Source: Candidatus Avelusimicrobium facis
GTDB lineage: Bacteria; Elusimicrobiota; Elusimicrobia; Elusimicrobiales; Elusimicrobiaceae
Reading direction: 5' to 3'
NCBI GenBank assembly: GCA_934636855.1
Contig: CAKUBH010000005.1
Location: forward strand, 46,370-110,369
DNA length: 64,000 bases
Position numbers and translations under genes: made by a program. The notes under the pieces are model-generated. The model was not told where the DNA came from. It worked only from the letters and a program-made list of their open reading frames with translations, and searched no databases. The stretch's first letter is position 1. Each line of letters begins with the position of its first letter. Shown piece after piece: positions 52-37,057 of the stretch.

Positions 52-1062
52 TTGTACATGACACCCCAACTCAACGAACTTCTCAAGCAAACTTCCCGCA
101 GCCTTTATTTAAGTGCGCGGCAGCTGCCGCCGGCCGCGCGGGACACCTTTGCCGTGGCGTATTTGCTCTGCCGCTACGCAGACAGCATAGCCGACACGGC
201 CTTGCTTCCGCCGACGCGGCGGCTGTACTGGATTCAGCGTTTTGCGCAGATGATTACCCACCCGCAAGCACAAGAGCAAACGCAGCTGGTGCAGGAAATT
301 TCGGGCGCGTCAGAAAATAAATACGAAGAGCAACTGCTTAAAAATTTCCCGTTGTGTCTGCAGGCGTTTGAAAAATTATTGCCGTGGCAAAAGCAAATCA
401 CATTAGACGTGGTGCACGCCGTGTGCGAAGGGATGAAAACGGATTTGCAGGTTTTTCCGCCGGAAACCGCAGGAGAAATACGGGCCTTGCCCTCGGCCGA
501 TGAGCTGGAGAAATATTGCCGGTTAATGGGCGGGGCGCCAGGCGTATTTTGGAGCAAACTCATTTCGCACACGGTGCCCGTCAAAATAAAAGAAACGGAT
601 TTTTGGACCTGGGGACAAGCCATCGGGGACGCCTTGCAAATCGTCAATATCTTGCGGGACTTACCGCGCGATTTACGCATCGGCCGCTGCTACTTCCCCG
701 AAGAAGAACTCCAAAAAAACGGATTAACCGCAACGGACTTGCTGCATCCCGAAAACAGCCCGCGCTTTGAACCCGTCAAGCAATATTGGATCCGTTGGGG
801 CCGCCAAAAATTGCAGTACGCCAAACTCTTTTATGGCGCCCTGCCCAAAACACAACCGGCCCATCGTGCCGCCGTGGCGTGGCCGGCGCTGTGGGCGGCG
901 GACACATTAAATAAAATTGCGGTAGAGCCGGCTTTGTTGGACCCGGGCCGCCGCGTAAAAATCCCGCGCGCGCGCATTTACGGCACCTTCTGTTTGACGC
1001 CTCTTATTTTGCTGAGCAACACGCTGTTCAATACGTGGCTTCAAAGCAAGTTAGACAAATAA
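52..1062 (+). CDS. squalene/phytoene synthase family protein (HpnC/HpnD/CrtB-like)
   Basis: 336-aa ORF with the trans-isoprenyl diphosphate synthase head-to-head fold signature: RSFYLSARxLP, AYLLCRYADSIAD (DxxxD) and GDALQIVNILRDLPRD Asp-rich motifs. Confidence 0.7.
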   Translation: MYMTPQLNELLKQTSRSLYLSARQLPPAARDTFAVAYLLCRYADSIADTALLPPTRRLYWIQRFAQMITHPQAQEQTQLVQEISGASENKYEEQLLKNFPLCLQAFEKLLPWQKQITLDVVHAVCEGMKTDLQVFPPETAGEIRALPSADELEKYCRLMGGAPGVFWSKLISHTVPVKIKETDFWTWGQAIGDALQIVNILRDLPRDLRIGRCYFPEEELQKNGLTATDLLHPENSPRFEPVKQYWIRWGRQKLQYAKLFYGALPKTQPAHRAAVAWPALWAADTLNKIAVEPALLDPGRRVKIPRARIYGTFCLTPLILLSNTLFNTWLQSKLDK

Positions 1063-1589
1063 CCTAAAAAAACCGCGTAATATTTCATGCCGTTTCCGCT
1101 GTGCCGTAAAACACCGCCCATGCTCAGGCAGGCTTTTTCCGCTGCTTTATTTTCCTCGTAAGCATAGCAAAGAGTGTAGGGGGCTCCCGTTGCCTGGTCC
1201 AGCCAAATTTGCCAAGCACTCACAAGGGCACCGCCCCGGCTGTTGGTGCAATACACATCCCTCGGCGCGGACAAAACGCAAAAGGTGTGGGCGGTGGGTT
1301 TCCAATTTTTTGCTTCATCGGGAAACCCGGTCCCGGGCAAGGAAATATCCAAGTCGCTAAAGGCATTGGTATATTCCCCGTTGGCCATAAAGTAGCGCTC
1401 TTCGGCATCCTTGATAGACCGGGTTAAAATTTGCAATTCCGCCAAGTGGGTCCGCGTTACCGCCGCCTGATATTGTGGCAGCGCCACCGCGGCAAGGATG
1501 CCGATAATGAGCACGACCACCAACAATTCAATCAGCGTAAAGCCGCCGAAGCAGATACTTGGTTTTTTGCCGTTATAAAATAAGGTCAT
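1041..1589 (-). CDS. type IV pilin-like protein, paralog 1 (prepilin-type N-terminal cleavage/methylation domain)
   Basis: N-terminus MTLFYNGKKPSICFGG|FTLIELLVVVLIIGILAAVALPQY is a canonical class III signal/prepilin motif. The ORF extends to 1652, but the Met at 1589 immediately precedes the leader and the upstream bases are the conserved regulatory element. Confidence 0.6.
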   Translation of the reverse strand: MTLFYNGKKPSICFGGFTLIELLVVVLIIGILAAVALPQYQAAVTRTHLAELQILTRSIKDAEERYFMANGEYTNAFSDLDISLPGTGFPDEAKNWKPTAHTFCVLSAPRDVYCTNSRGGALVSAWQIWLDQATGAPYTLCYAYEENKAAEKACLSMGGVLRHSGNGMKYYAVFLGYLSNLL

Positions 1590-1610
1590 CCTGGAAAGTT
1601 TTAGTCCAGG

Positions 1611-1716
1611 ATCTAAATTTCGCGTATACGCAAAATTTAGCAAAAAAAACATGAGGCAAGTGTTTTACATGGCGGAGCCAACTTCTACAACGACAAAAAG
1701 AAAACTGAAAGAGCCG
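1611..1716 (-). promoter_or_regulatory. conserved pilin-leader element copy 1 (palindrome CTAAATTTCGCGTATACGCAAAATTTAG plus A8/T8 tract plus conserved 60-bp box)
   Basis: ~85% identical over ~95 bp to 6973-7090 and 15543-15660. All three copies lie immediately 5' of a pilin-like gene on the same strand. Confidence 0.6.
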
Positions 1717-6440: not shown

Positions 6441-6466
6441 GCCCCCGCTTCATGGCGGGGGCGCTT
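6441..6466. terminator. bidirectional rho-independent terminator
   Basis: GCCCCCGC-ttcatg-GCGGGGGC hairpin between convergent genes. Confidence 0.5.
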
Positions 6467-6959
6467 AATAGCCCAAACTTTGGCATAATCCGGCAATTTT
6501 GCTCTCACATTCCGTTTGGCCCGGATTTTCCGAATAGTCCAGCCAAATAATATATTTAGAGGGTGCCTGTTCATTTAGTTCCCCCGTGTTCATCCTTTTC
6601 CCCTTACCGGGTATCCCATGCGTGTCCCACAATACCAAGTTGGGGCTGGGTCCGGCAAACATGTCAACGACAAATTTATCACACCACAACATATAACGGC
6701 CTCCGCCATCTAAACATCCCGGATAATTTATGTCCAGCTCCCGCCAATATTGCGGATATTCCCCATTGGCTATATAGTACACTTCCATGGCGTCTTTTAG
6801 TGATTTTCCTGCCATTTGGAGTTGGACGAAACGGCTTTTTGCTGCTGTTTTTGTGTACTGTGGCAGCGCCACGGCAGATAATATGCCGACGATGAGCACA
6901 ACAACTAATAACTCAATCAGCGTAAAGCCGCTTAAACGGCCCGTAAAACGGTTTTTCAT
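6465..6959 (-). CDS. type IV pilin-like protein, paralog 2
   Basis: MKNRFTGRLSG|FTLIELLVVVLIVGILSAVALPQY. SD AAGGAA 8 nt upstream of the ATG at 6959; the ORF nominally extends to 6998. Confidence 0.7.
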   Translation of the reverse strand: MKNRFTGRLSGFTLIELLVVVLIVGILSAVALPQYTKTAAKSRFVQLQMAGKSLKDAMEVYYIANGEYPQYWRELDINYPGCLDGGGRYMLWCDKFVVDMFAGPSPNLVLWDTHGIPGKGKRMNTGELNEQAPSKYIIWLDYSENPGQTECESKIAGLCQSLGY

Positions 6960-6972
6960 AGTGGAGTTCCTT

Positions 6973-7090
6973 TTTTGATAAATTTTGCCTATACGCAAAA
7001 TTTATCAAAAAAAAAACATTAGGCAAGTGTTTTAAAAAGGGGTGCCAACTTCTACGACGACAAAACAAAAAATAAACGGCAAAAGCTGTT
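6973..7090 (-). promoter_or_regulatory. conserved pilin-leader element copy 2 (perfect palindrome GATAAATTTTGC-CTATAC-GCAAAATTTATC plus A10 tract plus conserved box)
   Basis: Perfect 12-bp-arm inverted repeat centred ~6990, 20-45 nt upstream of the start codon. Remaining ~75 bp conserved with the other two copies. Confidence 0.6.
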
Positions 7091-7386
7091 CATCAAACAA
7101 GTCATCCCCGAAGGTCTCAGTCGGGGATCTTCGTCTTATTATGTCAAATAAGGAAAAAGCCTCTCTTATATAAATATCAGCGAAAGATTCCCGACTACAT
7201 TCCTCGGGAATGACACTTTATTTTGATGAAGGGGAATAAGGCTGAGATTCCCGATTACAATCCTCGGCCATGGCGGCATGAATGGAATGCGGCCCCTGTG
7301 TAACTAGCGGCCGATTTGCAAAATCTCACATATTTTATTAAATATACGCCGCCAAGCCTTAATAATAAAGTAAAATATATTTACCT

Positions 7387-8442: not shown

Positions 8443-10827
8443 ATGAAGATATTGTACAGCTGGTTAAAAGATTTCATTGATATTGACCTCACGCCCGAAG
8501 AGCTGGCGCAGAAGTTTACGCAGTTGGGCATAGAGGTAGCCTCGGTAGAAAAAACGGGAGCGGACTTTGAGGGCGTGCAGGTGGCGCAAATCACGCAGAT
8601 TGAAAATCACCCCGATTCCGACCACCTGCATTTGGTCACGCTGGACTTGGGCGGCGGAAAAACCCAACGCGTGGTCTGCGGGGCCCCTAATGTGGCCGTC
8701 GGGCAAAAGGTACCCTTGGCCCGCGTGGGCGCCCGGCTGGGCAAAACCGTATTGACCCCGGCCAAAATCCGCGGCGTGGTCAGCGAAGGGATGATTTGCT
8801 CCTCGGACGAATTGGGTTTGACCCATACCCGCGCCCGGGGCATTTTGGTGTTGGAGGAAGATCTCCCGCTGGGCACGGATGTGCGCAGCCTGTACGGCCC
8901 GGCCGATGCCTTGTTTGATTTGGAAATTACTTCCAACCGGCCCGATTTGCTCTCTCACCTGGGCGTGGCGCGCGAATTGTCCGCGCTGCTCAATTTACCC
9001 GTGCATATGCCGAAAGTGGAAGAAATTGCCGGCGAGGGCGAAAGCTTGCAGGTGGACGTGCAAGACCCGAAAGCCTGCCCGCGCTACACGGGGCGTTTGC
9101 TGCGCGGGGTAAAGAATGCGCCGTCTGCGCAGCTCATCCAAGACCGCTTGGCTGCCATGGGCCTTCACCCCAAAAACGCGTTGGTGGATGTAACCAACTA
9201 CGTCATGTTTGAATTAGGCCAACCGCTGCACGCCTTTGACCGCAGCGAAATTGAGGGAGACACCATCGTAGTGCGCCGCGCCGCCGCCGGGGAAAAATTT
9301 ACCCTATTGGACGGACGCGAACTGACCTTGGACGAAAATGCCTTGCTCATCGGCGACAAGCAAAAAGCCACCGCTTTGGCCGGCATCATGGGCGGGTTGG
9401 ACTCCGGCATTAAAGAAAACACGCAAGAGGTCTTTCTTGAGTCGGCTTATTTTGACGCGCCGACGATTAACAAAACCTCTAAAAAATACGGGGTATCGTC
9501 TGACTCTTCCCAGCGCTTTGAGCGCGGGGCCGATATCGGCATGACCGTTTTTGCGCTGCAGCGGGCTACGCAACTGCTCTTGGCCTGCTGCGGGGGCCGG
9601 GCCAGCCAAATCCGCGATGTGTATCCGCAACCCTTTGAAAACCCGGTCGTGTCGTTTACCCCGGCGCAAATCAACGCCATTTTGGGCGCAGACCTTGCCG
9701 AAGAAAAACTCAAAGATATTTTCACCCGCTTGGCCGCCCGGTTTGACGCTTCCTCCACGCCGTGGACCTTTCAGGCGCCGACGCACCGGCGCGACTTAAA
9801 CCACCGCTGGGACTTGGCCGAAGAGGCCGCCCGCTTTGCCGGGTTTGACTGCATCCCGGCGGGGGAATCGCGCGCGTTTGTCGGCTTTACCGAAAACCCC
9901 AAAGGGGTGGATTTGTTGGAAATCTTCGGGCAGAAGCTGGCCGGGCTGGGGTTTTACGAATGCAAGAACATTGACTTCTTGGGCGAAAAGGAACTGCAAG
10001 CCTTTGGCTTTGAAACCAAAAACGCCGTAAAAATCAAAAACGCCATGGCGCAAGGCTGGGACTATCTGCGCCCGACGCTGTTGCCCTCTTTGCTTAAAAA
10101 CATAGAGTTCAACGAGCGGCGCGGCAATAAAGATTTGGCCCTGTTTGAAACCACCCGCACCTTTACCCTCATCAAGGGTTTCCCCGCCGAAGCCTATACG
10201 GTGGCCGGGGTGTTATGCGGCCGCCTGACTGCCGAGCCGTTCTTTCAAGCAGAACAGGCCAAGCCGGATTTCTTTTTCTTAAAAGGCGTACTGCAAGATG
10301 TATTGGGCGGTTTTGAGGGGGTGCAATTTGTCCCGGCCGAAAAAGCCCCGGTGTATATGCACCCCAAAATTTGCATGGACATCGTGGCCCATGGCAAAAA
10401 AATCGGCGTGTTCGGGGCGGTGCATCCGCTAACGCTGCAAAACTTCTCCGTCAAGGCGGCAGAAGTATGGGCTTTTGAATTTTCCGCCAAACAGCTGGAA
10501 AAAGACTACAATGCCCAGCACTTCCACCCGGCGCAAGCCGTGGCGCAGTTCCCGCCGTCTCTGCGGGATTTGTCGGTCGTGGTGGACAAAGCCGTCTCTT
10601 ACCGGCAGCTGGCGCAAACGCTGCAAAACACCCCGCTGCCGATGACGATGCACTTTGCTTTGATAGACTTGTACGAGGGAGAACACGTACCGCAAGGCAA
10701 AAAGAGCGTAACGTTTACCCTGGCGTTCAGCGCGCCGGAGCGGACCCTCAAGGACCAAGAAACCGACGAAGCCTTTCATGCCTTGGTCAACAATTTACAG
10801 GAGAAACTGGGCGCCCAGTTACGATAA
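8443..10827 (+). CDS. pheT: phenylalanine--tRNA ligase beta subunit
   Basis: 794 aa with tRNA-binding, B3/B4 and FDX-ACB domain order; directly follows pheS. Confidence 0.95.
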   Translation: MKILYSWLKDFIDIDLTPEELAQKFTQLGIEVASVEKTGADFEGVQVAQITQIENHPDSDHLHLVTLDLGGGKTQRVVCGAPNVAVGQKVPLARVGARLGKTVLTPAKIRGVVSEGMICSSDELGLTHTRARGILVLEEDLPLGTDVRSLYGPADALFDLEITSNRPDLLSHLGVARELSALLNLPVHMPKVEEIAGEGESLQVDVQDPKACPRYTGRLLRGVKNAPSAQLIQDRLAAMGLHPKNALVDVTNYVMFELGQPLHAFDRSEIEGDTIVVRRAAAGEKFTLLDGRELTLDENALLIGDKQKATALAGIMGGLDSGIKENTQEVFLESAYFDAPTINKTSKKYGVSSDSSQRFERGADIGMTVFALQRATQLLLACCGGRASQIRDVYPQPFENPVVSFTPAQINAILGADLAEEKLKDIFTRLAARFDASSTPWTFQAPTHRRDLNHRWDLAEEAARFAGFDCIPAGESRAFVGFTENPKGVDLLEIFGQKLAGLGFYECKNIDFLGEKELQAFGFETKNAVKIKNAMAQGWDYLRPTLLPSLLKNIEFNERRGNKDLALFETTRTFTLIKGFPAEAYTVAGVLCGRLTAEPFFQAEQAKPDFFFLKGVLQDVLGGFEGVQFVPAEKAPVYMHPKICMDIVAHGKKIGVFGAVHPLTLQNFSVKAAEVWAFEFSAKQLEKDYNAQHFHPAQAVAQFPPSLRDLSVVVDKAVSYRQLAQTLQNTPLPMTMHFALIDLYEGEHVPQGKKSVTFTLAFSAPERTLKDQETDEAFHALVNNLQEKLGAQLR

Positions 10828-14905: not shown

Positions 14906-15526
14906 TTAAAAGTTCAGCTGATACCGGGGATGACCATTCTCTGCCGTCCCTGTGCGGGGGCCGAAAGAAGCGCACACCCGGTCCCCCACCTGTGTGCCTG
15001 CATAGCATGACTTGCGTTGCGGACAAAAATCAATGACCACAGTGCCTAAACTTGCATATATGCACGAGGAGCCTTCGGGCAACCTGAAATATCCAATCGG
15101 CGTTCCCGTATATTCCAACCCCTGCTCATACGCTTGTTTGGAAGTATAAGACATGGCTATGTCCAATTCTTCCAAATCCGTGGAATAAGTACCATTGGCT
15201 AAAAAACTCCTTTCCCGCGCATCCAATATGCTGCGTAAAACGGGCAAGGCTTTGCCTACGCGGGCGCGTTCCACCGCCACCCGGTATTGCGGCAGCGCCA
15301 CAGCGGAGAGAATGCCAATGATAAGGACCACGACCAACAATTCAATGAGGGTAAAGCCGCCGCGCCGTTCATCGCATGAGGTCATCCTGGAGTGTCTGGC
15401 GACCCGCAGGGTTCCAGGATCTGCCGTGTTCCTCTTGTTTGTAACGACAGACCCTGGACTACGACCTTCCAGGGGGACAACGTTGAGGAATAACCGGCCC
15501 AAACGGCCTGTAAAACGGTTTTTCAT
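14906..15526 (-). CDS. type IV pilin-like protein, paralog 3 (leader region carries an in-frame ~130-bp hairpin-rich insertion)
   Basis: The 5' end (MKNRFTGRL, SD AAGGAA) is near-identical to paralog 2. The reading frame then runs through a 47-codon insert before GG|FTLIELLVVVLIIGILSAVALPQY. An alternative start MTSCDERRGG|FTL lies at ~15390. Confidence 0.6.
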   Translation of the reverse strand: MKNRFTGRLGRLFLNVVPLEGRSPGSVVTNKRNTADPGTLRVARHSRMTSCDERRGGFTLIELLVVVLIIGILSAVALPQYRVAVERARVGKALPVLRSILDARERSFLANGTYSTDLEELDIAMSYTSKQAYEQGLEYTGTPIGYFRLPEGSSCIYASLGTVVIDFCPQRKSCYAGTQVGDRVCASFGPRTGTAENGHPRYQLNF

Positions 15527-15542
15527 GAGAGGGTTCCTTTTT

Positions 15543-15668
15543 TGCTAAATTTTGCCTATACGCAAAATTTACCAAAAAAAAAACATTGTGCAAGTGTTTT
15601 AAATTACGGAGCCCACTTCTATGACGGCAAAACAAAAATAAACGGCAAAAACAATAAGGCTGAGGCTG
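15543..15668 (-). promoter_or_regulatory. conserved pilin-leader element copy 3 (palindrome TAAATTTTGC-CTATAC-GCAAAATTTA plus A10 plus conserved box)
   Basis: Aligned with copies at 1611-1716 and 6973-7090. Confidence 0.6.
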
Positions 15669-15813
15669 TTATAAAAATTAAGGTCATGCTGAGAGGTTTT
15701 AGTTCAGGATGACCGTATTGGATAACTACAAGGGCCTTTCGCTGTTGCGTCGTTATGCCGTTCGCCGTTTGCACAGCGGCCATTGGAGCGTTTATAAAAA
15801 ATAAAATTTCATA

Positions 15814-15845
15814 CAAAAAACCGCCCCGGAAGGGGCGGTGTAAAT
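15814..15845 (-). terminator. rho-independent terminator of the infC-rpmI-rplT operon
   Basis: On the minus strand, CACCGCCCC-ttcc-GGGGCGG followed by TTTTTTGTAT, just 3' of rplT. Confidence 0.6.
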
Positions 15846-15866
15846 ACTTGCGGAAACCGCTTAAAC

Positions 15867-16220
15867 TTAGGCGTTGGCTTTCTTGGCCACATCCACCAAT
15901 TGCTTAAACGACACCGGGTCTTTGATTGCCATTTCAGAGAGCATCTTGCGGTTAAGCGTGATGCCGGCTTTCATAATACCGCAGATGAATTTGGAATAGC
16001 TCATACCCTCTTCGCGCACGGCGGCGTTGATACGGGTAATCCAAAGCTGGCGGTAATTGTGTTTTTTGTCGCGGCGGTCCACATAAGAGTGCACCCACGA
16101 TTTACCCAATTGCTGGGTAGCCATGCGCAAGCGGCGGGATTTGTCTCCGTAATAACCGCTGGCGGCTCTTAACAATTTTTTCTTTCTGGCGTGTCTGGGA
16201 ACGCTAAATTTAATTCTCAT
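15867..16220 (-). CDS. rplT: 50S ribosomal protein L20
   Basis: MRIKFSVPRHARKKKLL...YRQLWITRINAAVRE is a canonical L20 sequence. Confidence 0.95.
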   Translation of the reverse strand: MRIKFSVPRHARKKKLLRAASGYYGDKSRRLRMATQQLGKSWVHSYVDRRDKKHNYRQLWITRINAAVREEGMSYSKFICGIMKAGITLNRKMLSEMAIKDPVSFKQLVDVAKKANA

Positions 16221-16233
16221 GTTGCTTCACCTC

Positions 16234-16440
16234 TTATTTAGCTACGGGCAGTTGTTTCTGCAAGATGCGTCCGTTGAGGGAGTTCTTTTCAATCACTCCG
16301 GTCGCGCGCATGTCATGTTTGCGGGAAGCAGAAACAGGCGTAAGCAAATGTTTTCTGCCGGCTTTGCGGTGGGTATATTTACCCTTTGCGGTCACGCGAA
16401 AGCGTTTTTTCGCGCCGCTGTGGTTTTTCATTTTAGGCAT
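16234..16440 (-). CDS. rpmI: 50S ribosomal protein L35
   Basis: [21 protein letters not shown]...; 68 aa. Confidence 0.9.
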
Positions 16441-16529
16441 TTGTTTTCCTCTAGTTTAATTTCGCGCCGTCAGGCGCGCCCTCCCCTACGCAAACCAGTG
16501 CGCGGGCAGGTGTTTAGTTAAAAAGAAAG

Positions 16530-17069
16530 TCAGGCTTTCGGTACGAAAGTCATGGACATGCGGTTGCCCTGCTGTTGCAGGCCGCCGTCCACATTGGCCA
16601 AGGGCTCCAGCCGTTTGGCGGCGTCTTGGAGCATTTGCATGCCAATGTCTTTGTGTTGGTTCTCCCGCCCGTGGAACACCACGACCAGGCGCACCATATC
16701 TTTCTTTTTAAGAAATCCTTCTATTTGTCTGAGTTTGACGTCCAAGTCATGCGGAGCGATGCGCGACTTAATGCGCAGCTCTTTCATGGTTACCTTGCTT
16801 TGTTTTTTCTTGGCGTCTTTATTCTTTTTGCTCTGTTCAAAAACATACTTATTGTAGTCAAGTATTTTGCAAACAGGCGGCTGGGCGTTGGGTGAAATTT
16901 CCACTAAGTCCAGCTCTTGCTCTTTGGCCATTGCGATGGCAACGGAAAGCGGCTGAATGCCGATCATGCTGCCGTCAGAATCAATGACTCTCACTTCTTG
17001 CGCACGGATGTTTCCGTTGCGGGTGTACAGGTCTTTTTTAAAGACTCTTCTGTTATCGTATCTGGCCAT
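16530..17069 (-). CDS. infC: translation initiation factor IF-3
   Basis: NIRAQEVRVIDSDG...LDLVEISPNAQPPVCKILDYNKY matches IF3 N and C domains; classic infC-rpmI-rplT order. Confidence 0.9.
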   Translation of the reverse strand: MARYDNRRVFKKDLYTRNGNIRAQEVRVIDSDGSMIGIQPLSVAIAMAKEQELDLVEISPNAQPPVCKILDYNKYVFEQSKKNKDAKKKQSKVTMKELRIKSRIAPHDLDVKLRQIEGFLKKKDMVRLVVVFHGRENQHKDIGMQMLQDAAKRLEPLANVDGGLQQQGNRMSMTFVPKA

Positions 17070-36871: not shown

Positions 36872-36927
36872 AATTCCTCCATTAAAGATATTAAATCATA
36901 AATAAAAAAGAAAAGCAACTATTTTTT

Positions 36928-36943
36928 GTTTTCACGTGAAAAC
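36928..36943. other. parS-like site GTTTTCACGTGAAAAC
   Basis: Perfect 16-bp palindrome with the TTTCACGTGAAA core identical to parS; 57 bp upstream of the parA start. Confidence 0.6.
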
Positions 36944-36962
36944 ACGCTCTGTTGTAAAAAAT

Positions 36963-36978
36963 GTTTTCACGTGAAAAC
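36963..36978. other. parS-like site GTTTTCACGTGAAAAC
   Basis: Second identical copy 35 bp from the first. Confidence 0.6.
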
Positions 36979-37057
36979 AAGACAGGCCCTGTATCAACAA
37001 GGCCTGTGAATTGCTGTGGATAACTTATTAACAGGGTCCGTTTTCCCTATACAATTT

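Follow-up and report, generated by a model that had tools for sequence, protein, structure and literature searches.

Hairpin repeats resembling Ssn-related motifs at the pilin genes of Candidatus Avelusimicrobium facis, with one inverted pair kept in frame in the prepilin leader

In Neisseria, a hairpin repeat called NTS (CGTCATTCCCGCGMAVGCGGGAATCYRG, starting CGTCATTCCCGC...) encompasses dRS3 (ATTCCC-N8-GGGAAT) and is cut, as a hairpin in single-stranded DNA (ssDNA), by SsnA, a GIY-YIG nuclease of 94 amino acids (aa) (Chenal et al. 2025, Nat Commun 16:2388, PMC11893778). Cleavage depends critically on the 3 nt located 5' of the NTS stem, SsnA binding depends critically on the C that follows it, and the loop is dispensable; NTS copies are clustered around certain genes, and transformation by NTS-bearing DNA is lowered by SsnA (PMC11893778). 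Ssn-related motifs (SRM) flank ssn genes in many bacteria, an arrangement that has been compared to insertion sequences (PMC11893778). In neisserial intergenic mosaic element (NIME) arrays, dRS3 copies flank repeat sequence (RS) units; these arrays are dynamic, embed or flank pilS cassettes, are associated with recombination end points, and were reported absent outside Neisseria (Bentley et al. 2007, PMC1797815). Here we describe short hairpin repeats at three type IV pilin genes of Candidatus Avelusimicrobium facis (Elusimicrobiota; Elusimicrobiaceae), one inverted pair of which lies within the coding sequence of the prepilin leader. The window that we analyzed is a stretch of 64,000 nt with 52% G+C (GenBank assembly GCA_934636855.1, contig CAKUBH010000005.1, positions 46,370 to 110,369), and the repeats were followed through 380 kb of three related genomes.

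All three pilin paralogs of the window (Table 1) matched Pfam N_methyl (E values from 1e-7 to 3e-6) and carried the prepilin signature G↓FTLIELLVVVLIIGIL of class III signals (arrow, cleavage site; G at -1, F at +1, E at +5, and a hydrophobic helix). The nearest named relatives of their products were type IV pilins of Candidatus Avelusimicrobium facis, Elusimicrobiaceae, and alignment of the paralogs revealed ~110 bp of upstream DNA common to the three genes, referred to below as the shared module. The distance from the first start codon (ATG1) to the Phe+1 codon was 171 nt in paralog 3 versus 33 nt in paralog 2, which gives paralog 3 a leader of 57 aa. A first-pass annotation of this DNA had seen that paralog 3 begins like paralog 2 (MKNRFTGRL) and then carries an extra in-frame segment, and we confirmed both points, the excess being 138 nt. 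It had taken the segment for an insertion specific to paralog 3. This part did not hold, because, of the 39 pilin genes whose 5' end is complete in the three genomes, 26 had the same element at the same site, a long leader being what this pilin family most often shows.

A protein search revealed dozens of pilin clusters with the same leader and with C-terminal domains just ~45% identical to that of paralog 3; the recurrent long leader reads MKNRSTGRLGRLFLNAVTLESRSPGSVVxNKRNTTDPG(TLRAARH)SRMTLCDERRGG↓FTLIELL. A genome scan with the leader as the sole query yielded 28 loci from two metagenome-assembled genomes, which together with the window supplied 44 pilin N-termini. Three leader states were observed at one identical site. 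Thirteen genes had the short form, ATG...GGCCGTTTAGGC↓GGCTTTACG, with an 11-aa leader. The long forms carried either a type I element, with CCTGGA stems, or a type II element, with CCCGA stems, which encodes NVVIPECFYRGSQPLKNTTRFPITTFGNDARRRYVGG and has no in-frame ATG. Both types share one architecture (GTCAY-stem-loop-stem-ATC, spacer, GAT-stem-loop-stem-ATGAC, tail) and span 120 to 190 nt, made up of two inverted units, a spacer of 20 to 60 nt, and tails of ~20 nt. As RNA, the whole paralog 3 element was predicted to fold into a single long hairpin (-57.7 kcal/mol, z -2.1).

Are these long leaders translated? With ATG1 placed by nucleotide motif and any frame allowed, all 26 long leaders were open and in frame from ATG1. 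They came in 11 lengths (72, 111, 150, 153, 159, 162, 171, 177, 189, 213, and 243 nt), every one a multiple of 3, and they give leaders of 24 to 81 aa, against the short leaders of about 5 to 30 aa expected of prepilins. Variability by codon position was flat in the elements (0.16/0.17/0.25 and 0.165/0.10/0.17); at the mature pilin N-terminus it was 0.17/0.02/0.51. The flat variability, together with the kept frame, argues that selection maintains the open frame and the nucleic-acid structure, not the peptide. Because type II has no in-frame ATG, at least the type II genes need ATG1. In paralog 3, the reverse complement of the right unit (15381-15421) supplies an internal in-frame ATG (MTSCDERRGG); the protein P0014 (MTSCDEWRGG...) was considered as evidence that this internal ATG is used and was rejected, since its contig is truncated inside the element. 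We propose that one inverted unit pair is fixed at one leader site, between MKNRxTGRLG and the G↓FTLIELL cleavage site, and that this copy would be translated from the first ATG. The pair would be tolerated there because the prepilin leader is cut off by prepilin peptidase, leaving a frame that must be kept and a peptide that is free to change.

The units themselves consist of (C)GTC, an 8-bp stem, a loop, the complementary stem, and C. Our search was anchored on GTCAY and did not impose the C 3' of the stem. Among the 146 units found, the base directly 3' of the stem was nonetheless C in 145, and the base before GTC was C in 85; the loop measured 9 nt in 118 units and 17 to 22 nt in 26. Over the 380 kb, both strands included, 123 of the 1,041 GTCAY anchors had perfectly complementary arms (8/8), against a background mode of 4 to 5 of 8. 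Shuffling the partners of the 146 units reduced the number with perfect arms from 123 to 24.7 (maximum, 39). Eight stem variants (ATCCCCGA, ATTCCCGA, ACCCTGGA, ATGCTGAG, ATCCTGAA, ATCCTGGA, ATGCTGGA, and ATTCCCGC) were all perfectly complementary. In the window, the pattern GTCATSCYNGA-N7-24-TCNRGGAT matched three times, compared with 0 matches in 100 shuffles. Single units folded as DNA with -6.3 to -8.7 kcal/mol and were more stable than shuffled sequence (z -3.0 to -6.6; about -1 for the long-loop unit); as RNA, they reached -11 to -16 kcal/mol. For the asymmetry between G-T and A-C mismatches, which bears on RNA versus DNA constraint, mismatches were too few and their types mixed. These data show that the stem structure is under selection.

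Where do the units lie? In the three genomes, 51 of the 146 were in leaders and 69 were in arrays that lie immediately upstream of the shared module, 150 to 1,100 nt ahead of a Phe+1 codon. A further 23 lay within 700 nt of a contig end, and the remaining 3, located elsewhere, had unrelated stems and are chance look-alikes. Searches with nhmmer and two element profiles agreed with an independent scan for GTCAY hairpins, and no genuine unit was found in the 380 kb away from pilin 5' regions or contig ends. In the window, likewise, each of the seven units belonged to paralog 1, 2, or 3 and was no farther than ~360 nt upstream from its Phe+1 codon. Arrays extended up to ~730 bp upstream of pilin genes (for example, locus L015, 9630-10355) and held whole elements, tails included, in both orientations. 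The type I spacer carries a Shine-Dalgarno (SD)-like AAGAGGAAC ahead of the internal ATG, and the same spacer occurs in non-coding array copies. The first-pass suggestion of a small palindromic footprint, REP- or MITE-like, at pilin 5' ends is thus close to the evidence: the motif recurs as ~146 units in 380 kb, in inverted pairs, restricted to pilins.

In a separate locus (L013, 880-1000), a different pilin-like gene (MRKKRLTNRAFTLTELLVVVIIVG...) stood downstream of the same module and a hairpin array, so the repeats accompany more than one pilin subfamily. The ends of contigs L002, L010, L011, L012, L018, L027, and L029 fall inside a hairpin array or a leader element. Metagenome assemblies break at pilin genes because of the repeats, and truncated pilin calls such as P0014 result; the repeats also lead gene callers to report either 57-aa leaders or truncated pilins.

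How do these repeats compare with NTS and SRM? Like them, the units carry (C)GTC 5' of the stem, a core of ATYCCCG...CGGGRAT, and C directly 3', so that CGTCATYCCCG...CGGGRATC is common to the units and NTS, and they are oriented hairpins present in many copies clustered around particular genes. Three marks of an SRM, namely, a 5' GTC, a 3' C, and a hairpin semi-palindrome held by base pairing, were found in the units. Unlike NTS and SRM, the units have an A-T closing pair instead of C-G and loops of 9 to 22 nt; they belong to an Elusimicrobiota host (a phylum unmentioned in PMC11893778), are restricted to pilin genes, and have one pair in frame in a coding sequence. When GTCATYCCCGA-N9-TCGGGRATC was used to scan metagenomes, the matches listed included contigs from very diverse environments, few of them near pilins. 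On the environmental contigs among these matches, the unit was typically paired and inverted, with the canonical NTS-like GGATTCCCGCtttcGCGGGAATGAC, and on 4 of them a unit with a 9-nt loop adjoined a single-domain GIY-YIG open reading frame (ORF). Three of these ORFs were complete (91 to 98 aa; Pfam PF01541, E values from 1e-14 to 5e-18), and the fourth was truncated and matched by hidden Markov model (HMM) only.

With moderate confidence, we interpret the hairpins at pilin genes as DNA repeats of the Ssn-related kind (NTS/dRS3, NIME-like), with a probable effect on recombination included. The pairing, the GTC and C flanks, the covariation of the stems, their presence on both strands, and their location outside transcripts point to recognition as ssDNA. 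Such hairpins would most likely be recognized by a small GIY-YIG nuclease of the Ssn type rather than act in the mRNA. By analogy with Neisseria, they may locally control or stimulate recombination at pilin loci, including recombination with transforming DNA, and a role of this kind would explain the rapid turnover of modules between strains that is described below.

Several observations weigh against this interpretation. We know of no demonstration of natural transformation in this lineage. NTS are more widely distributed in Neisseria than these units, which are strictly tied to pilin genes, and inheritance through expansion of the gene family could explain that restriction equally well, with no function needed. 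Because the distribution test drew on loci retrieved via pilin leaders, only the 10-kb flanks of these loci and the window are unbiased. The published SRM pattern (HGTCWYN(0-2)YYVSBRHN(0-5)WNVSBRGN(0-2)RNCYNB) had 0 matches in the window and 4 spurious matches in 347 kb of related loci versus 50 in environmental loci; it fails because of the A-T closing pair (CCCGA..TCGGG) and for no other cause. Finally, a search with phmmer and HMM revealed no Ssn or GIY-YIG homolog in the six-frame ORFs of ~410 kb of Elusimicrobiaceae DNA, a sample that amounts to perhaps 15 to 20% of one genome and small parts of others.

Comparison with the other described repeats led to a similar mixture of shared and distinct features. 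Like NIME, the arrays consist of GC-rich inverted repeats with AT-richer spacers beside surface-protein genes, pilin included, and the number of repeats varies between strains at syntenic sites; a recombination role has been proposed for NIME. Unlike NIME, the 35 of 146 units that end in ATTCCC...GGGAAT have N13 in place of N8, other stems are used too, and the arrays stand only 5' of complete pilin genes bearing the shared module, not around silent cassettes. The units resemble repetitive extragenic palindromic (REP) sequences and their doublets (REPINs) in being clustered inverted doublets of short hairpins that fold into one long hairpin, and REP and REPIN act as single-stranded hairpins, as the units would. 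They differ in their flank, which is GTCA and not GTAG or GTGG, and they are not extragenic, given the 51 units in coding leaders. No REP-associated tyrosine transposase (RAYT) was seen in the sampled DNA, in which the units were not genome-wide; no genome-wide RAYT search was made. Rickettsia palindromic elements (RPE) are ~100 to 150 bp long, lie in frame in protein-coding genes, and are translated (PMC10969869). By description, they parallel the in-frame, translated palindromic repeats of the pilin leaders. RPE, however, occupy many unrelated genes and stay in the mature protein, whereas here a single family has one fixed site and the peptide is removed.

Orthologous loci in other strains carried differing sets of modules, which bears out the mosaic exchange between loci that the first-pass annotation had suspected. 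Its further argument, that a 12-mer shared between the regions upstream of paralogs 2 and 3 marks such exchange, stood only in part: the 12-mer is present at 7235-7246 and 15653-15664, but it cannot serve as an independent mark of recombination, as it is the start of the element spacer. The paralog 3 orthologs were 83 to 100% identical. That of the A. facis locus L031 had a 9-nt loop and a different tail; in L030, the leader held one additional unit, the upstream region held more units, and the upstream genes were different; and in L029, the contig breaks inside the element. In the paralog 1 ortholog (L152), the flanks were ~99% identical up to a palindrome upstream of the gene, followed by an SD, ATG1, and a full type I element. 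In the window, paralog 1 has kept just the right unit and the tail and has lost the SD and the first ATG. As the first-pass annotation had noted, the paralog 1 ATG (1589-1587, - strand) lies inside an inverted repeat, where it corresponds to the CAT of GTCAT read on the opposite strand; it is the only start codon left to that gene. Because L152 keeps the SD, ATG1, and the full element, this start within a hairpin is a strain-specific product of a recent deletion. The remodelling between strains fits a role of the repeats as recombination substrates or cut sites.

L030 and L020 showed further departures. In L030 (1-3000), compared with the window (15800-17000) and L031 (8400-10000), NDK, hydrolase, and GH3 genes replace infC-rpmI-rplT upstream of the paralog 3 ortholog while the downstream genes are unchanged; this break at the repeat array is either a rearrangement or an assembly chimera. 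In L020 (5100-5400), one pilin gene has neither the shared upstream module nor ATG1, and its array runs straight into a hybrid element (type I left arm, type II right arm) and then into the mature coding region. This gene may be a silent or decaying copy.

Could the units instead be purely selfish elements, comparable to MITEs (transposable elements of the miniature inverted-repeat kind) or REPINs, that are moved by a transposase encoded elsewhere (RAYT, IS110-like, or other), prefer pilin leaders as targets, and have no host function? We regard this as unlikely but deserving serious consideration. Such elements would account for the terminal inverted repeats, the folding of the element as one long hairpin, the GGCCGTTTA common to element ends and leader, and the variation of presence and copy number between strains, and in-frame palindromic elements are known in Rickettsia. 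With respect to MITE traits, the inverted-repeat architecture is clear, and GCGGCTT stood at both junctions in 5 to 6 copies, like a 7-bp target duplication; this direct repeat was, however, degenerate in the rest, that is, in most copies. The units were also confined to pilin 5' regions in the 380 kb, they have GTCA where REP carry GTAG or GTGG, and no transposase was seen beside any array. The selfish explanation overlaps with an Ssn-related origin, because a resemblance to insertion sequences has been pointed out for motif-flanked ssn genes too (PMC11893778).

An idea that goes back to the first-pass annotation is that the hairpins sequester the start codon, or the SD, in the mRNA and so control translation of the pilins. 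The stability of the units as RNA and the position of the type I internal ATG, in the 3' arm with the SD-like AAGAGGAAC in the spacer ahead of it, would suit such control, and yet we consider it highly unlikely. Identical units stand in both orientations upstream of the shared module with its putative promoter; the SD-like spacer is found in non-coding array copies too; type II, at the same site, has no in-frame ATG; the ATG1 frame, kept in 26 of 26 leaders, indicates read-through translation; the start of paralog 1 in a hairpin is a deletion product and no designed riboregulator; and control at the mRNA level gives no role to the invariant C after the stem or to the GTC before it. There is only a very slim chance that an invertible promoter confers phase variation here, with the inverted units on either side of the shared module and ATG1 as its inverted repeats. 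Long-form genes do have a right-type unit just upstream of the module and a left-type unit, inverted, just downstream of ATG1, but the orientation of the module relative to the gene was the same in 39 of 39 complete 5' regions, short-form genes lack the downstream repeat, and no invertase was seen nearby. That the long leader is a functional pro-peptide, with the hairpins a by-product of its coding sequence, is extremely unlikely. An ORF that is always open and a leader motif (...LESRSPGSVV..DPG..SRMT...) in dozens of protein clusters would suit it, but codon-position variability was flat, compensatory stem changes alter the peptide (DPG..SRM to DAG..SSM), one family makes do with peptides of two unrelated types (I and II) as well as a short form of 11 aa, and non-coding arrays contain this DNA too, in either orientation.

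Returning to the interpretation as Ssn-related DNA repeats, we also considered a more specific form of it, which we think quite unlikely. The hairpin pair between the 5' module and the variable pilin body would be a programmed Ssn-type nick site that starts gene conversion or exchange among dozens of paralogs, nicked whenever the DNA becomes single-stranded through transcription, replication, or uptake. It would then be a functional counterpart, evolved in a distant phylum, of the G-quadruplex (G4) of pilE and of the NIME of Neisseria, and it would lead to antigenic or phase variation of the pilins, with paralog 1 (which lacks the SD and first ATG) and the L020 copy (which lacks the module) as possible examples.

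The features of the window are collected in Table 1. Every hairpin that the first-pass annotation had named was present (1585-1613, 15381-15421, 15448-15470, and 15682-15714), and three units upstream of paralog 2 (7101-7129, 7186-7214, and the degenerate 7246-7274) were added.

Table 1. Coordinates of the pilin genes, the leader element, and the associated repeats in the window
Feature	Position	Strand	Remarks
Pilin paralog 1	1041-1589	-	Type IV pilin-type gene
Pilin paralog 2	6465-6959	-	Type IV pilin-type gene, short 11-aa leader
Pilin paralog 3	14906-15526	-	Type IV pilin-type gene
Mature part of paralog 3, Phe+1 (FTLIELLVVVLIIGIL...) to stop	14906..15355	-	Pfam N_methyl residues 54-78, E 1e-7
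Two-hairpin element, type I, in frame in leader-coding part of paralog 3	15357..15499	-	Encodes GRLFLNVVPLEGRSPGSVVTNKRNTADPGTLRVARHSRMTSCDERRG; nhmmer match 15499-15357, E 1e-37
First start codon and common leader beginning ATGAAAAACCGTTTTACAGGCCGTTTG (MKNRFTGRL)	15500..15526	-	Kept in 39 pilin genes
Upstream module of all pilin paralogs	15527..15650	-	SD-like AAAGGAAC; 52-bp AT-rich palindrome (15533-15584); promoter-like hexamers picked by eye, TTGCAC-16 nt-TAAATT
Right-type unit fused directly to shared module of paralog 1, GTCATCCTGGA-aagttttag-TCCAGGATC	1585-1613	+	
Unit upstream of paralog 2, GTCATCCCCGA-aggtctcag-TCGGGGATC	7101..7129	+	DNA fold -7.5 kcal/mol, z -4.4
Inverted partner of 7101-7129, GTCATTCCCGA-ggaatgtag-TCGGGAATC	7186..7214	-	
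Degenerate unit, GCCATGGCCGA-ggattgtaa-TCGGGAATC, then TCAGCCTTATT	7246..7274	-	6/8 pairs
Right unit of paralog 3 element, GTC-ATCCTGGA-21 nt loop-TCCAGGAT-C	15381..15421	+	8/8 pairs
Left unit of paralog 3 element, GTC-CCCCTGGA-aggtcgtag-TCCAGGGT-C	15450..15478	-	7/8 pairs, 9-nt loop; DNA fold -6.3 kcal/mol, z -3.0
12-mer AATAAGGCTGAG	15653..15664	+	Reverse complement of TCAGCCTTATT (start of element spacer, after left-type units)
GGTCATGCTGA..TCAGGATGACC upstream of paralog 3	15682-15714		
Fused unit GTCATGCTGA-loop-TCAGGATGAC, directly upstream of paralog 3 shared module	15683..15713	.	DNA fold -8.7 kcal/mol, z -6.6
Distal boundary module of repeat arrays	15715..15815	-	Just beyond rplT terminator

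The right unit of the paralog 3 element, which can also be written GTCATCCTGGA-21 nt-TCCAGGATC, runs forward on the template strand, and its 21-nt loop variant (ACCCTGCGGGYCGCC) was found again in type I and type II elements at other loci. The left unit runs forward on the coding strand; the hairpin CCCTGGA..TCCAGGG at 15448-15470 is part of this full unit, GTCCCCCTGGA..TCCAGGGTC. Upstream of paralog 2, the pair 7101-7129/7186-7214 recurs in L015 at 9638-9752, and the second copy of the 12-mer directly abuts the degenerate unit. The fused unit at 15683-15713 combines the left arm of one unit with the right arm of its partner, and the L030 ortholog holds full elements there; it is probably an internally deleted pair. 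The boundary module, ~110 bp long, also precedes the arrays in L015 (9520-9637), L013 (100-180), and L030 (~2540-2700). A 31-aa ORF within it (15709-15804), called as a gene in L031, was rejected as it is not conserved as a protein in L015.

A promoter in the shared upstream module is our inference, as a scan for consensus promoters called none there. Between this putative promoter and the start codon of each paralog is a near-perfect AT-rich palindrome of 52 bp (GTTCCTTTTTTGATAAATTTTGCCTA/TACGCAAAATTTATCAAAAAAAAAAC; 6966-7017 and 15533-15584, with a half-site at 1613-1640) that contains an SD-like GGAAC and is conserved in every related locus. Its role could be that of an operator bound by a dimeric regulator or of a hairpin in the 5' untranslated region. 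Hexamers similar to those of sigma-54 promoters, TGGCAC and TTGCC/TTGCA, are present in the module at 7022-7047 and also upstream of paralogs 1 and 3; a canonical sigma-54 promoter was rejected because their spacing is N15 versus N5, an excess of exactly one helical turn. At gathering thresholds, the sole Rfam match in the window was a tRNA, and no known RNA family covered the leader. For paralogs 1 and 3, the Pfam domain ComP_DUS, that of the receptor pilin for DNA uptake sequences, matched weakly and below threshold (E values from 0.004 to 0.007). This domain is present in the precomputed annotation of several homologs, and the matches in the paralogs span the general pilin helix and may mean nothing more. 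A perfect 19-bp palindrome, TTGTTTTCACGTGAAAACA, occurs twice, 17 bp apart, at 36926-36980 of the window, with a similar TTTTCATGTGAAAAC in L020 near 4805; these palindromes may be a regulator binding site. Among the records of L001 to L028, two GTDB genomes with pilin loci of Elusimicrobiaceae type are titled "Eggerthellaceae bacterium" and "Duodenibacillus sp."; both records are probably mislabelled or mis-binned.

In-frame palindromic repeats in Rickettsia (PMC10969869) and Ssn motifs in many bacteria were already known. New here are the phylum, a variant of the motif that escapes the published pattern, an association with one pilin gene family and no other genes, and a fixed in-frame site in a leader that is cleaved off. 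If our interpretation is correct, the Ssn/NTS hairpin system would extend to a new phylum, in a form that the published search pattern does not detect. Gut Elusimicrobia would provide an independent case of the link between hairpin arrays and pilins, which was thought to be peculiar to Neisseria, and this independent recurrence would argue for a general role of such repeats at genes for variable surface proteins. The pilin leaders would also offer a clean natural case of a DNA repeat inside a coding sequence, with the frame kept in 26 of 26 genes and a peptide that drifts since the leader is discarded.

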